Positions 4,681-20,134 of a stretch of 64,000 nucleotides of DNA are shown here, one piece after another. The DNA comes from Candidatus Nomurabacteria bacterium. GTDB lineage: Bacteria > Patescibacteriota > Minisyncoccia > Phycocordibacterales > CALRBL01. A program made the position numbers and the translations under genes. The notes beneath the pieces are model-generated. The model saw nothing but the letters and a program-made list of their open reading frames with translations, had not been told where the DNA came from and searched no databases. Positions within the stretch are counted from its first letter, which is position 1; every line of letters starts with the position of its first letter. The stretch spans positions 1,338 through 65,337 of the forward strand of contig CAWIDS010000001.1 in assembly GCA_963834935.1 (NCBI GenBank). Direction: 5' to 3'.

Positions 4681-5040
4681 TTGCCATATTATGCAAATCG
4701 CTTGCATAATATGAGAACCAACGTATACAAAGGACAGATACTGAAGCTGCTTAAGAAAAAGCATCTTTTGACTATCGCGGAAATTCACAAAGCTGTTCCG
4801 AATGCCGACTATTCCACGGTCTTCCGCAATGTCGAGCAGCTTCTCAAAGGCAAGCAGATCAAGAAAATCATGGTCGACAACCGGTCTATCGCGTACGAGT
4901 TTTCAAAAGACAGTCATGATCATTTTATCTGCAACGATTGCGGAAAGGTCGAATCGATTCACCTGCCCCGCAATTCAATCAAAGACCGCAAGATTGACGA
5001 TATTACCATAAGAGGCAGTTGCGGTAACTGCACAAATTAA
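4681..5040 (+). CDS. Fur-family metalloregulator (Fur/Zur/PerR-like).
   Basis: The ORF track starts at TTG 4681; the ATG at 4711 is the likely start. Winged-helix N-terminal domain, then HDHFICNDCGKV and a C-terminal CGNC. The next gene begins 1 nt after the stop. Confidence 0.8.
   Translation: MPYYANRLHNMRTNVYKGQILKLLKKKHLLTIAEIHKAVPNADYSTVFRNVEQLLKGKQIKKIMVDNRSIAYEFSKDSHDHFICNDCGKVESIHLPRNSIKDRKIDDITIRGSCGNCTN
4685..4713. promoter_or_regulatory. Perfect 12-5-12 palindrome (candidate operator) whose last triplet is the ATG of the Fur-family gene.
   Basis: CATATTATGCAA-atcgc-TTGCATAATATG. The two arms are exact reverse complements. Confidence 0.6.
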
Positions 5041-10415: not shown

Positions 10416-11054
10416 TCATATCGAATTATAAGAGAAGATGCTTGCCAAAGCGAAGGCAACGGCTACCCAGAGGATGATTTCTGCGAGCAAAAGGAGGAGG
10501 CCGATTTTGAAAAGGATAAAAAAAAGAAGCAGGATAACTCCGACGCATTGAAGGACCATTTTGATCTTACCGGGAAGCTTGGCTTGAATGTTAGCCTTCG
10601 GATGCGTGATCTTCTTGTATATCGCTGCTGTGATGATGATCACCTCAAGGAATATGATGACAAGCGCAAGCCAGATGTTGACACAGCGAGTGAGAAGGAT
10701 GACCGCCGCCGATCCGATGAGAAGCTTGTCTGCTAACGGATCGTAAAATTTCCCGACAGTAGTGATCTGATGACGGATGCGAGCCATGGCGCCATCGAGA
10801 GCATCGGAAAGGGCTGCTGCGATGAATATGATAGATCCCCAAAAATAATCATAGGTGAGGAAAAAATAGATGACGAAAGGAATGCAACAAAGCCGGAAAA
10901 AAGTGACGGTATTAGGCCGGATTTTGCGCGGAATGGCATTAAGTATACTTCTTCCTATGACCTTGTCGGTAAACGTAAGCTTGGATTTGCCGATGCGGTT
11001 CTTTAATTCATCTTTTGGTTCCTCCAGCTTCATTGCATGAATTATACCTATCAT
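10416..11054 (-). CDS. pgsA: CDP-alcohol phosphatidyltransferase (phosphatidylglycerophosphate synthase-like).
   Basis: Motif DALDGAMAR...G...DPLADK. Multi-TM protein. Confidence 0.8.
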   Translation of the reverse strand: MIGIIHAMKLEEPKDELKNRIGKSKLTFTDKVIGRSILNAIPRKIRPNTVTFFRLCCIPFVIYFFLTYDYFWGSIIFIAAALSDALDGAMARIRHQITTVGKFYDPLADKLLIGSAAVILLTRCVNIWLALVIIFLEVIIITAAIYKKITHPKANIQAKLPGKIKMVLQCVGVILLLFFILFKIGLLLLLAEIILWVAVAFALASIFSYNSI

Positions 11055-11089
11055 AAATCAAGTTCTCAATCATATAGACATTCATCTAC

Positions 11090-11725
11090 ATGCTGATATG
11101 GTATATCATACACACTATGGACGGAAACACTGAAAGCAAAATAAATCCCATCATCCGATCCCTGATTTTTTCGGATTTTCTCGTCTTATCCGCATTTTCG
11201 ATCTATGGGCCGATATTCGCCATCTTCATTCTTAAGCAAATCAACGGCGGAACAGCCGGAACAGTAGGGGTCGCAACCGCGTCATACTGGATAGTGAGGT
11301 CAATACTGCAATTGCCGATCTCTAAAGCTCTCGACAAGCAAGACGATAAACGCCTCAATTTCAGAGCGCTGATAATAGGATCATTCCTTTTCAGTATCGT
11401 GCCATTCCTTTTCATATTCGCTACCGAGCCATGGCATGTCTATGTTCTCCAAGCTATTTATGGCATCGGTGATTCCCTCGCTGCTTCCACTTATCTGTCA
11501 GTCTTCTCAAATCATCTCGACAAGAAGAAAGAGAACCTCGAATGGGGAACGCGCTCCGTCATGGTCGGTATAGGCACATCCATTGCTGCAGTCGGAGGCG
11601 GTTTCCTCGCTGACCGCTACGGTTTCCATATGATATTCATCATCACCGGGATACTGGCTCTTTTCGGCTCATCGCTTCTCATCTATTCTCGCTATAAGGA
11701 TTCAGAATTAGGAATGCATAATTGA
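11090..11725 (+). CDS. MFS-like 6-TM membrane protein (half-size transporter unit).
   Basis: Six hydrophobic helices. GIGDSLAASTY and GGGFLADRYG loops resemble MFS motifs. At 211 aa it is about half a canonical MFS transporter. Confidence 0.45.
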   Translation: MLIWYIIHTMDGNTESKINPIIRSLIFSDFLVLSAFSIYGPIFAIFILKQINGGTAGTVGVATASYWIVRSILQLPISKALDKQDDKRLNFRALIIGSFLFSIVPFLFIFATEPWHVYVLQAIYGIGDSLAASTYLSVFSNHLDKKKENLEWGTRSVMVGIGTSIAAVGGGFLADRYGFHMIFIITGILALFGSSLLIYSRYKDSELGMHN

Positions 11726-15248: not shown

Positions 15249-15271
15249 TAAAAAAACCCGCTTAAAGCGGG
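15249..15271 (-). terminator. Rho-independent terminator, minus strand.
   Basis: AAAAAAA then CCCGCTTAAAGCGGG on the plus strand, which gives a hairpin plus U-tract on the minus strand. Confidence 0.6.
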
Positions 15272-15732
15272 AGGCATTGAATGCTGACGATTTCAAACAC
15301 GAGCTTACTCTCGCCAGAGACCCTGATCAAGGTTGCATTCTTATCCAGAAGGCCCATGAGATCTCTCCTTTCCAAAGCATTGCTGATTCCCGGTTTTTTG
15401 CAGTCAATGGGTAGGCAGCCGACCTGATATTGAGTGCCGTCTTCCATACTGACCCACAATGTCTGCTTGCCAGAGATCTTCACCTCCTTGTCATCAGCGG
15501 TACGATCCCTCCAAAAAAGCGCCACGATTCGGTCAGGCAGGATCACATTGGCGCAGTGGGGGCAATATCCCATGGCTTCCGTATTAGGATTCTGAATGAC
15601 CTCAAGCGACGTTCTGATGCCTATAGGGCCGAACCGGGCCCGGGTTCGCCTAACCCACTCCCATGAGCTGTAATTATAGAGGAACCTGAGACCGTCGATC
15701 CTCTTAGCCAAAGAACGAAAGAACTTTTCCAT
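15262..15732 (-). CDS. Hypothetical protein with CPHC and C..C motifs.
   Basis: ORF of 156 aa. Confidence 0.45.
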   Translation of the reverse strand: MEKFFRSLAKRIDGLRFLYNYSSWEWVRRTRARFGPIGIRTSLEVIQNPNTEAMGYCPHCANVILPDRIVALFWRDRTADDKEVKISGKQTLWVSMEDGTQYQVGCLPIDCKKPGISNALERRDLMGLLDKNATLIRVSGESKLVFEIVSIQCLPL

Positions 15733-15789
15733 ACATTGACAACATTAAACAAAATGACAGTTCTGTCAATGGTGTGATATCATTAGCGC

Positions 15790-16800
15790 ATGAAATTCAT
15801 TTTTATCGCAATGGTCGCTTTCTTGTTCTTATCCCCTCCTTTAATCGCTTCCGCGCATGAGGTATATGTGCTCCCTCCAGCTGAAATCCAGGCCGCACTG
15901 CATAGCCCGACAGTCTCCCCTTTGACGGTGATAAAGGACAACCTCGTCCAATTCACCTTCTGGGCCTTCATCGTCGCCTTGAGCATATTCTGCGTCTTCT
16001 TCATCTCTATCACCCGCAAATTCGAGAAATATCTCGCGCCTTTTTTCGCCAGAACCAAGCACTGGGCGCCGCTCATAGGCAGAGTGACAGTCGGGATCAG
16101 CTTTCTCGCCGCAGCTTTTTACCAAGCAAGCTATGGTCCTGAACTGCCGCTTGCTGCGACTTATGGATCCTATACTCCAATTGTAACCGCTGGACTCATT
16201 GCAATCGGAATGATGATTATCTTCGGAATCGGCGCGCGCATCGCCGCTTTCATCGCCCTTATCATGTATGGCGTCGCGGTCAATAACCACGGCTGGTACA
16301 TGCTTACTTACTCCAACTATCTTGGAGAAATACTCCTTTTGCTCCTCGTTGGCACCAGCAACAAGTCCCCATGGGCAAAAAAAATCGAACCCTACGGCTT
16401 CCTCATACTTCGCGTGCTTTTCGGCTGCGCCCTCATCTACACTTCAGTCTATGCCAAGCTCTGGTTCTCGAATCTCGCTTTGGATACGGTCACTTACACC
16501 AGAGGAGGTACTCTTCTTCCGCTGACTCACTACCTCCATTTCGAGCCGCACTTCCTCGTCCTCGGCGCCGCATGCATCGAGATCCTTATCGGCCTCTTCT
16601 TTATCCTCGGCATCGAAATCCGCTTCACCGCCTTATTCTTGAATTTCTGGCTGACGCTTTCGCTCATACATTTTGGAGAAATCGTCTGGCCACATATTAT
16701 ACTCATAGGCATCCCTATCGCATTCTTCTTCTACGGTTACGACAAATTCTCCCTTGAAGGCTATTTCTTCAAGAAAAAAGGACTTGAACCCGTTCTTTAG
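15790..16800 (+). CDS. Polytopic membrane protein, DoxX-like (tandem).
   Basis: Signal-like N-terminus. Two repeated units (RVTVGISFLAAAFY... and LRVLFGCALIYTSVYAKLW...) resembling DoxX-family repeats. Confidence 0.45.
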   Translation: MKFIFIAMVAFLFLSPPLIASAHEVYVLPPAEIQAALHSPTVSPLTVIKDNLVQFTFWAFIVALSIFCVFFISITRKFEKYLAPFFARTKHWAPLIGRVTVGISFLAAAFYQASYGPELPLAATYGSYTPIVTAGLIAIGMMIIFGIGARIAAFIALIMYGVAVNNHGWYMLTYSNYLGEILLLLLVGTSNKSPWAKKIEPYGFLILRVLFGCALIYTSVYAKLWFSNLALDTVTYTRGGTLLPLTHYLHFEPHFLVLGAACIEILIGLFFILGIEIRFTALFLNFWLTLSLIHFGEIVWPHIILIGIPIAFFFYGYDKFSLEGYFFKKKGLEPVL

Positions 16801-18463: not shown

Positions 18464-18697
18464 ATGAATAAGACCATGAAAAATAAAATACTTGTAATTG
18501 GATCGGTTATACTGGGCATATTGTTTTTAGCACTCTCTTTCGTCTATTTTACCACTCCAGCCGGGTCCCTTCCTTCATTCATACCAGGTTTTGAGCCGGG
18601 CATTGTCAGCACTCATGTAAAGCACAGCGTTGCCTGTTTCATACTGTCACTCGCACTGTTCATCTTCGCCTGGTTTAAAAGCGCAAAAAAAGCGTAA
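18464..18697 (+). CDS. Small 2-TM membrane protein.
   Basis: ORF of 77 aa with two hydrophobic helices. Confidence 0.45.
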   Translation: MNKTMKNKILVIGSVILGILFLALSFVYFTTPAGSLPSFIPGFEPGIVSTHVKHSVACFILSLALFIFAWFKSAKKA

Positions 18698-19517
18698 GCG
18701 CTCCCACGATTACACAATAGGCCGCAAAAGGAAAAAGGGTCTTCTTCTCGAAATACTTCGTCAGGAATTTTACGGAAAAATATGCGCCGAGAGCGGAAGC
18801 AACCGAACCGGCAACTATGGGTGTAATCGCGTAACTCTGGTTTCCAATGAGTTCTGGCAGTTTCAAGACCGCGGCAGCAAAGATGATTGGCGTGGCAAGG
18901 AGGAACGAGAAATGAGCGGCATCTTCATGATTGAGGCCTATAAGTAGTCCACCACTGAGTGCCGCTCCTGTCCTTGAAAAGCCCGGAATGAGTGCCAGAG
19001 CCTGCGCAAAGCCTATCTTCACGCTCTGACCCCACGAGAGGTTCCGAGTATTAACAGTGGCTGCTTCCCTTTTTTTGCTTCTGCTTATGAGTTTTTCTGC
19101 CCCATAAAGCATGAGGCCGTTAAGAATGAGAAAGAAAGAAGCAGAACGCGGTGAAGCAAAAAGGATCTTGAATTTCTCTTCAAACAGCAAGCCGAGGATT
19201 CCCGCCGGGATGGTAGCGACCACCAGAAGCCAGCCAATCCTCTCGTATTTGTCTGCGGGGTCAATCAGCCGATTTTTCAGTGATCTAAAAATACCTTTTA
19301 TGATTAGCGCCCACTCCTTGAAGAAAAAAATAAACAACACGAAGGAGGTAGCTAGGTGTGTGGCTACGATAAAGATGAGGAAAAGATTTGAATTCTGGTC
19401 GATAGTCCATCCCAAAAGTGAAGGAATGATAACAGTGTGACCAAGACTGGAAACCGGAAAGAGTTCGGTGATTCCCTGGAAAAGGCCCAGGATTGTTGCC
19501 TGAAAAAGCGAGAACAT
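18675..19517 (-). CDS. uppP: Undecaprenyl-diphosphatase UppP (BacA).
   Basis: Motifs ITELFPVSSLGH and PGFSRTGAA. Eight TM helices. Confidence 0.9.
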   Translation of the reverse strand: MFSLFQATILGLFQGITELFPVSSLGHTVIIPSLLGWTIDQNSNLFLIFIVATHLATSFVLFIFFFKEWALIIKGIFRSLKNRLIDPADKYERIGWLLVVATIPAGILGLLFEEKFKILFASPRSASFFLILNGLMLYGAEKLISRSKKREAATVNTRNLSWGQSVKIGFAQALALIPGFSRTGAALSGGLLIGLNHEDAAHFSFLLATPIIFAAAVLKLPELIGNQSYAITPIVAGSVASALGAYFSVKFLTKYFEKKTLFPFAAYCVIVGALTLFLRF

Positions 19518-19520
19518 ATA

Positions 19521-19559
19521 GCCATTCTAACACAAATGTACTTTTTGTGTTAGAATGGC
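19521..19559. promoter_or_regulatory. Perfect 16-bp inverted repeat. Each arm carries an extended -10 (TGTGTTAGAAT), one facing tRNA-Glu and one facing uppP.
   Basis: GCCATTCTAACACAAA-tgtactt-TTTGTGTTAGAATGGC. On the + strand TAGAAT ends about 11 nt before the tRNA. On the - strand TAGAAT ends 6 nt before the uppP ATG. Confidence 0.55.
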
Positions 19560-19567
19560 GAACTAAC

Positions 19568-19639
19568 GGCCCTATCGTCTATCGGTTAGGACGAAGCCTT
19601 CTCAAGGCTTAAAGCCGGGTTCGATTCCCGGTAGGGTCA
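19568..19639 (+). tRNA. tRNA-Glu (anticodon CUC).
   Basis: Manual cloverleaf: acceptor GGCCCTA/TAGGGTC, D-stem GTCT/GGAC, anticodon stem AAGCC/GGCTT with loop TTCTCAA, T-arm CCGGG-TTCGATT-CCCGG, discriminator A. 72 nt; CC is encoded after it. Confidence 0.85.
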
Positions 19640-19696
19640 CCTTCAACAGCTATCTGGTTACTACAAGCACGAAGCAATGATTCAGGTGCCCCCGCG

Positions 19697-19729
19697 AGAC
19701 CCAAGTGAAAGCTCGGGTCTTTTTTTATT
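19697..19729 (+). terminator. Terminator after the tRNA.
   Basis: Hairpin AGACCCaagtgaaagctcGGGTCT followed by TTTTTTTATT. Confidence 0.75.
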
Positions 19730-19732
19730 AAA

Positions 19733-19763
19733 ATAAAAAAGGCGTCAACTACGAAGCGACGCC
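19733..19763 (-). terminator. Terminator for the minus-strand gene 19749..20072.
   Basis: AAAAAAA then GGCGTCaactacgaagcGACGCC on the plus strand. The hairpin overlaps the stop codon. Confidence 0.6.
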
Positions 19764-20072
19764 TGCCTCCTGCACTGGCCGGAGGAATTTCAAATGAGAG
19801 ATGCGCTCTTCTCTCGATTTCTTCCTTCGCTGAAGCTCGCTGCCGAAAACCGATTTAAATTCACCGAATCTGATGGTGATCGGTCTATTATTGGCAAAAT
19901 AATATTCCCGGCAGATGTCCGAAAGAAGCTGCTTCTCCTCTGTAGAGGTAAGCGCCCTGGCTTTCTTGGCTATCAAGCGCTCCCTTTTTTTATGAAATTC
20001 GTCGGCCATCATGCCGACATATCCGTCCAATTTCTGTTGTCGAGTCTTCATCCGAACATCTTTATACCACAA
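19749..20072 (-). CDS. Hypothetical basic protein.
   Basis: ORF of 107 aa. Probably starts at an internal Met (MKTRQQ...). Confidence 0.35.
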   Translation of the reverse strand: MWYKDVRMKTRQQKLDGYVGMMADEFHKKRERLIAKKARALTSTEEKQLLSDICREYYFANNRPITIRFGEFKSVFGSELQRRKKSREERISHLKFLRPVQEAGVAS

Positions 20073-20134
20073 AATATGAAAATTGACATCCTTTGATTTA
20101 ACTGTAAGGTTATGTCAGGACTGCACAAAACTCT

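Follow-up and report, generated by a model that had tools for sequence, protein, structure and literature searches.

At one locus of the 64-kb stretch of DNA analysed here (the window), uppP on the minus strand and a tRNA-Glu gene on the plus strand diverge from a short region that holds a perfect inverted repeat. We asked what this palindrome is, and why the sequence in front of one gene should be repeated, perfectly inverted, in front of the other. The analysis was carried out in silico, the organism being known from an assembly. Judged from the sequence, the palindrome is likely to be a back-to-back pair of extended -10 promoters with identical sequence.

Anatomy of the palindrome and its promoter elements

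A repeat search and direct reading of the sequence placed the two arms at 19521-19536 and 19544-19559, with 16 of 16 positions complementary, on either side of a 7-nt, non-palindromic spacer (TGTACTT, 19537-19543). This showed that the 16-bp perfect inverted repeat described in a first-pass annotation of this DNA is real. On the plus strand the left arm is worded GCCATTCTAACACAAA and the right arm TTTGTGTTAGAATGGC; read on the minus strand, the left arm is TTTGTGTTAGAATGGC as well. The full order on the plus strand is CAT (19515-19517), ATA, GCCATTCTAACACAAA, TGTACTT, TTTGTGTTAGAATGGC, GAACTAAC and the G at 19568 that forms position +1 of the tRNA. Among repeats with a spacer of up to 20 nt, the uppP/tRNA-Glu palindrome is the longest perfect inverted repeat of the 64-kb window, the next three having arms of 12 nt. 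Furthermore, the longest arm in 300 windows simulated with a first-order Markov model measured 9-13 nt and never reached 14 nt. Since it exceeds both the other repeats of the window and the 13-nt maximum of the simulations, the 16-nt palindrome is not a product of chance. The first-pass annotation had also suggested looking through the genome for the same palindrome at other divergent gene pairs; over the 64 kb of the ~433-kb contig that were covered, no second copy of the 16-mer was found at up to three mismatches. Elsewhere in the window, a 12-nt perfect inverted repeat, CATATTATGCAA-ATCGC-TTGCATAATATG, lies at 4685-4713, at the 5' end of the ORF at 4681-5040.

A consensus scan of both strands returned the identical arrangement twice, CTAACA-18-TAGAAT with a TG before the hexamer, which supports in silico the mirrored extended -10 boxes that had been proposed. 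The -10 hexamer of the uppP promoter runs from 19529 to 19524 on the minus strand, with TG at 19532-19531 and, as had correctly been noted, 6 nt (19523-19518) between TAGAAT and the ATG. The hexamer of the tRNA-Glu promoter lies at 19551-19556 on the plus strand, with TG at 19548-19549 and 11 nt to the mature 5' end of the tRNA. On both strands TAGAAT agrees with TATAAT at five of six positions, T1, A2 and T6 (TAnnnT) among them, and in both arms TG occupies -15/-14 and is followed by T and then TAGAAT, as in an extended -10 element. By the promoter scan, the left arm (minus strand) is the complete extended -10 core promoter of uppP, from about -19 to -4, and the right arm (plus strand) is that of tRNA-Glu over the same positions. 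Each arm is laid out as a T-tract at about -19 to -17, TGTG (the TRTG motif), TAGAAT at -12 to -7 and GGC at -6 to -4. The -35-like hexamer CTAACA is weak (4/6, with an 18-bp spacer), and each promoter's CTAACA is the complement of the TGTTAG of its partner.

In a survey of 49 bacteria, transcription start sites were centred 7 bp past the -10 element, and TG and TRTG were enriched at the extended -10 position (PMC12641261). As far as extended -10 promoters of the TGn/TRTGn type (Mitchell et al. 2003) are described in that source, the arms resemble them closely: TGTG-T-TAGAAT fits TRTGnTAnAAT, and the only -35-like hexamer is a weak one. The core motif shows no difference from this class, while the -35-like hexamer is here a by-product of the partner's sequence. 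When the arm was compared with 13 other leaderless promoters of the window, only 5-10 of the 16 positions matched. The non-consensus bases common to both arms are the G at the third hexamer position, the T after TG, and GGC. Because the arms agree at such non-consensus positions too, promoter function alone does not explain the perfect symmetry.

We therefore considered what else the symmetry might mean. As single-stranded DNA, the palindrome folds at -16.6 kcal/mol (z = -8.6) around an AT-rich centre, and a simple search for terminators gave a minus-strand hit there. These properties would suit a nucleic-acid structure: in RNA, a hairpin within a 5' leader or an intrinsic terminator; in DNA, a cruciform driven out by the negative supercoiling that builds up between divergent transcription units. 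However, the palindrome is contained in neither of the two predicted RNAs, and no promoter-like site was found upstream of it on either strand, so that the RNA hairpin role suggested earlier is not supported. Both flanking genes point away from the palindrome, leaving nothing to terminate; with a stem in which 6 of 16 pairs are G-C and a tail, TATATGTT, that makes a poor U-tract, an intrinsic terminator was rejected. A structural role is, on this evidence, highly improbable. We also considered a dif-like dimer-resolution site or an integrase attachment site, and rejected both: arm and spacer lengths differ, there is no sequence likeness, and the region has neither a skew switch nor integrase genes nearby.

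The uppP start codon and leaderless genes

The reading of the left arm as a promoter depends on where uppP begins. The gene (uppP/bacA, undecaprenyl-diphosphate phosphatase, 280 aa; PF02673, E = 1.5e-68) occupies 18675-19517 on the minus strand, with its ATG at 19515-19517. The N-terminus of UppP is common to ~9-10 homologues of 60-66% identity, in which M1, Q6 and A7 are invariant, and position 1 of the Pfam BacA profile falls at residue 7. A start upstream of the ATG is impossible because an in-frame TAG, 12 nt upstream, lies inside the -10 box. No SD-like purine run precedes the gene in GAATGGCTAT, and the SD core is absent from -20 to -5. The in-frame TAG, the homologue N-termini and the BacA profile together leave uppP without an SD and without an alternative start in either direction; a downstream Met preceded by an SD, which had been named as one finding that would overturn the proposed reading, was not borne out. 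With the 7-nt rule (PMC12641261), the predicted +1 falls on the A of the ATG itself (19517), which would make the mRNA leaderless.

The relatives of uppP point the same way. A -10-like box stands 6 nt before the uppP start in four of five distinct relatives, three of these with TG: TATACT+6+GTG in L013, TGaTAAACT+6+ATG in L014, TGgTACTAT+6+ATG in L016 and TGcTAGAAT+6+GTG in L139, the fifth (L137) being ambiguous. Besides the window's own sequence (P0001, 100%), the nearest other UppP is ~67% identical; the names that homologues carry put the organism in Patescibacteria/Paceibacterota. A scan of genome contigs with UppP returned alphaproteobacterial matches only, at 39-45% identity, which were useless for synteny.

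To place uppP among its neighbours, the end position of TAnnnT relative to the start codon was recorded for 68 long non-overlapping ORFs of the window. TAnnnT ended exactly 6 nt before the start in 14 of the 68, uppP included, compared with ~1.5 typically at other spacings, and several of the 14 read TGaTATAAT+6+ATG. Examples of ORF starts with this signature are 1266, 3949, 13073, 15790, 24371, 25853, 29884, 33215, 55224, 55303 and 60595. An SD 4-mer between -20 and -5 was found in only 11 of the 68 ORFs. The 6-nt distance of uppP is thus the modal one, at the positional peak and within the 6-8 nt between Pribnow box and start that GeneMarkS-2 describes for its group C leaderless genes (PMC6028130). 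TA-led bacterial genes are likewise a published leaderless signature (PMC3160421). Like both of these (PMC3160421, PMC6028130), uppP combines a -10 box at 6 nt, no SD, an ATG at the predicted 5' end and a genome-wide peak. The published classes were described mainly for Actinobacteria and Deinococcus-Thermus, whereas the present genome is Patescibacteria/Paceibacterota-like and has a strong TG (extended -10) component.

The anti-SD motif is reportedly missing in about half of Parcubacteria (PMC9297842), and this frequent absence fits a leaderless picture. In the literature searched, we found no description of leaderless mRNA in Patescibacteria/CPR bacteria. Leaderless initiation from TGnTAnnnT promoters appears to be routine in this lineage. 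If so, gene-start calling in candidate-phyla genomes would be affected, and lineage-wide leaderless use from extended -10 promoters, as the more general point, may matter more than the palindrome. For uppP, the absence of a leader and of an SD claimed in the first-pass annotation is supported in silico by the modal 6-nt spacing and by the like arrangement in four of five relatives. A leaderless uppP mRNA, as predicted from these signals, is well supported and would be ordinary for its genome.

All relatives examined, like the window, have a gene that points towards the other end of uppP and encodes a membrane protein of 72-85 aa without a Pfam match. Its coordinates are 18464-18697 (+) in the window, 3838-4068 in L013, 3841-4098 in L014, 3842-4072 in L016, 3847-4074 in L137 and 3795-4013 in L139. 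The gene overlaps the 3' end of uppP in the window (by 23 nt) and in L013, L014, L016 and L137, and is separated from it by a 14-nt gap in L139. The encoded proteins are 47-60% identical and have PAGSLP..PG...H.KH invariant. The true start of the window's copy is likely to be 18476.

The tRNA-Glu unit

The tRNA-Glu gene (anticodon CUC) was located at 19568-19641 on the plus strand by ARAGORN and by Rfam (RF00005, 57.6 bits; Rfam end 19639), and neither search found a further tRNA or Rfam family in the window. The predicted start zone and 5' leader of the pre-tRNA span 19560-19567 (+). By the 7-nt rule the leader would measure ~5 nt. The seventh nucleotide after the hexamer, 19563, is a C, and the nearest purines are A19562 and A19565; these are for that reason the likelier starts, with a leader of ~3-6 nt. 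The exact start within such a leader is uncertain, and the 4-5 nt before the mature 5' end given in the first-pass annotation fall within the predicted range. Downstream, RNA folding predicts an intrinsic terminator at 19696-19727 (+; stem GAGACCC..GGGUCU plus U7), which makes tRNA-Glu a monocistronic unit.

We then compared the position of the tRNA-Glu box with that in relatives. A metagenome scan for the tRNA-Glu(CUC) pattern yielded 120 loci with 112 distinct upstream regions. Of the 46 TGnTAnnnT boxes that these regions contain within 60 nt of the gene, 21 form a cluster at a distance of 8-11 nt from tRNA +1. Typical boxes of relatives read TGTTATAAT or TGTTATATT, followed by 8-10 nt. At 11 nt, the box in the window lies inside this cluster.

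Some further features of the unit and its surroundings were observed. Positions 19640-19642 read CCT; the gene thus encodes the CC but lacks the final A of the 3' CCA, and a CCA-adding enzyme would be needed. A trailer of ~55 nt separates the tRNA from the terminator. Beyond it, two ORFs without Pfam matches overlap on opposite strands, at 19749-20072 (-, TTG start) and 19794-20096 (+, ATG start, with GGAGG 8 nt upstream).

Divergent geometry and the origin of the symmetry

The two promoters are arranged back to back: the genes diverge, and each CTAACA lies inside the TG/-10 region of the partner. The two hexamers have 21 bp between them, and transcription is predicted to start at 19517 and ~19563, a distance of ~46 bp. 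Beck and Warren reportedly classified, in 1988, back-to-back sigma-70 divergent pairs with non-overlapping transcripts. Like such pairs, the locus has two -10 elements on opposite strands, diverging transcripts and overlapping upstream regions, with ~50 bp that are common to, or contested by, the polymerases. Unlike them, both core promoters are here the same 16-bp sequence, perfectly inverted, within the ~46 bp from start to start. The bidirectional promoters of the Warman/Grainger class have overlapping -10 elements and starts 7-25 bp apart, most often 18 (bioRxiv 10.1101/2020.01.31.928960; PMC12825309). The locus resembles this class in that it would be transcribed divergently from a pseudo-symmetrical region in which the -10 symmetry is involved, but its -10 elements are separate rather than overlapping, and with this spacing of hexamers and starts it does not have the defining geometry; assignment to the Warman type was rejected.

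Pairs of comparable layout occur in relatives. In L071, two leaderless genes have hexamers 21 bp apart, the geometry of the window, and in L016 the hexamers of uppP and of an adjacent 172-aa gene are separated by 25 bp; neither pair is palindromic. A leaderless gene stands beside tRNA-Glu in each of L077, L098 and L045, again with no palindromy, and L049 has 12-nt mirrored arms, TAAATTATAACA and TGTTATAATTTA, around a 33-nt spacer. Across 906 kb, mirrored extended -10 boxes numbered 124 back to back versus 96 face to face, a weak enrichment, and strict leaderless pairs were few; because the numbers are too small, we claim no preferred spacing. The first-pass annotation had called a single symmetric element serving two divergent promoters unusual. 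The perfect symmetry is indeed unusual, but the -10 boxes are two separate elements and their arrangement recurs in the lineage. Only the symmetry stands out; in this lineage, neither the lack of a leader on uppP nor the shortness of the tRNA leader is out of the ordinary. The locus combines known kinds, namely extended -10 promoters, leaderless mRNA and back-to-back divergent promoters, of which the palindrome is a new example.

We further asked whether the symmetry is conserved. Neither the palindrome nor a tRNA lies upstream of uppP in the uppP relatives examined, and no palindrome was found upstream of tRNA-Glu in relatives. Searches for uppP in the 120 tRNA-Glu loci and for the arm sequence in the 140 related loci likewise gave no match. 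A 24-nt likeness upstream of tRNA-Glu in L103 (20/24 identical) was set aside as uninformative, since this locus has no left arm and a distant tRNA (61/72 identical).

This pattern bears on whether a dimeric DNA-binding protein might use the palindrome as its operator, alongside or in place of the promoter pair, and so switch uppP and tRNA-Glu together. The two-fold symmetry of 16+16 bp does extend beyond the promoter consensus, as the poor match to other promoters indicates; it is very unlikely to be due to chance, and it covers both -10 elements. Nevertheless, the recurrence to be looked for in an operator was not seen, there being no second copy or half-site in the window at up to three mismatches or in the 140 related loci, and no conservation upstream of uppP or of tRNA-Glu in any relative examined. 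In addition, Pfam identified no regulator gene among the neighbours scanned, and half-sites are typically shorter than the 16 bp of these arms. The protein-binding site raised earlier has so far gained no support from these searches, and we regard an operator as unlikely. That the two-fold symmetry is itself under selection, forming a 39-bp minimal switch in which both -10 boxes are occluded at once, by a dimeric regulator bound to its operator or by a cruciform that supercoiling drives, seems to us very unlikely. If true, the supply of tRNA-Glu would be tied to the recycling of the cell-wall lipid carrier by uppP, and this in a genome that has very few regulators.

The surroundings of tRNA-Glu suggest a history instead. 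In many metagenomic relatives (among L017-L136, for example L103, L108, L112, L114, L119 and L135), the gene immediately before tRNA-Glu(CUC) is read in the same direction and ends in ...QEEEW(L/K)...*, which argues that the uppP/tRNA-Glu adjacency of the window is derived and arose by local rearrangement. As both the adjacency and the palindrome are missing in the relatives examined, a recent, lineage-specific origin fits. The perfect symmetry is probably historical rather than a functional requirement. It may have arisen when uppP came to lie beside tRNA-Glu, either by an inverted copy of one promoter or by a template switch that corrected a quasi-palindrome.

Such a history admits the possibility that one arm is a working promoter and the other a passenger copy left by inverted duplication, the second gene being expressed from elsewhere or from another start codon. 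The idiosyncratic bases common to both arms suggest copying, and the adjacency is not ancestral. Yet the distance from each arm to its own gene (6 nt for the ATG, 11 nt for the tRNA) is typical of the lineage, the promoter scan found no other promoter-like site for either gene, and uppP lacks both an alternative start and an SD. A passenger arm is, in our judgement, quite unlikely.

Two working promoters, the reading that we prefer, would operate as follows. From the left arm, RNA polymerase would open the minus-strand TAGAAT and start at A19517, the first base of the uppP AUG, giving an mRNA without 5' UTR or SD for leaderless translation, the route that at least a fifth of the genome's genes would take. 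From the right arm, polymerase would start at ~19562-19565 and produce a pre-tRNA-Glu with a leader of 3-6 nt, which RNase P would remove; this unit would end at the terminator at 19696-19727. Because each CTAACA is the complement of the partner's TGTTAG, the polymerase footprints must overlap, and we infer that the two promoters probably compete rather than fire together. With ~46 bp from start to start, the locus would show, in a clean minimal form, two transcription units packed back to back in an ultra-compact Patescibacteria genome with nothing more than extended -10 promoters and leaderless translation, and the 39-bp cassette is directly testable as a synthetic bidirectional promoter.

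Other closely spaced divergent pairs were noted along the way. The ORFs at 15262-15732 (-) and 15790-16800 (+) diverge from a 57-bp intergenic region that contains a palindrome, TGACAG-TT-CTGTCA (15755-15768), which looks like mirrored -35-like hexamers common to this pair. Only 35 bp (11055-11089) separate the divergent start codons of the ORFs at 10416-11054 (-) and 11090-11725 (+), a gap that places their promoters inside or against the partner gene. Finally, the gene tables of two long contigs, those of P0017 and P0034, show uppP divergent from a SpoU methylase gene, with the called starts 18 bp and 45 bp apart, respectively.
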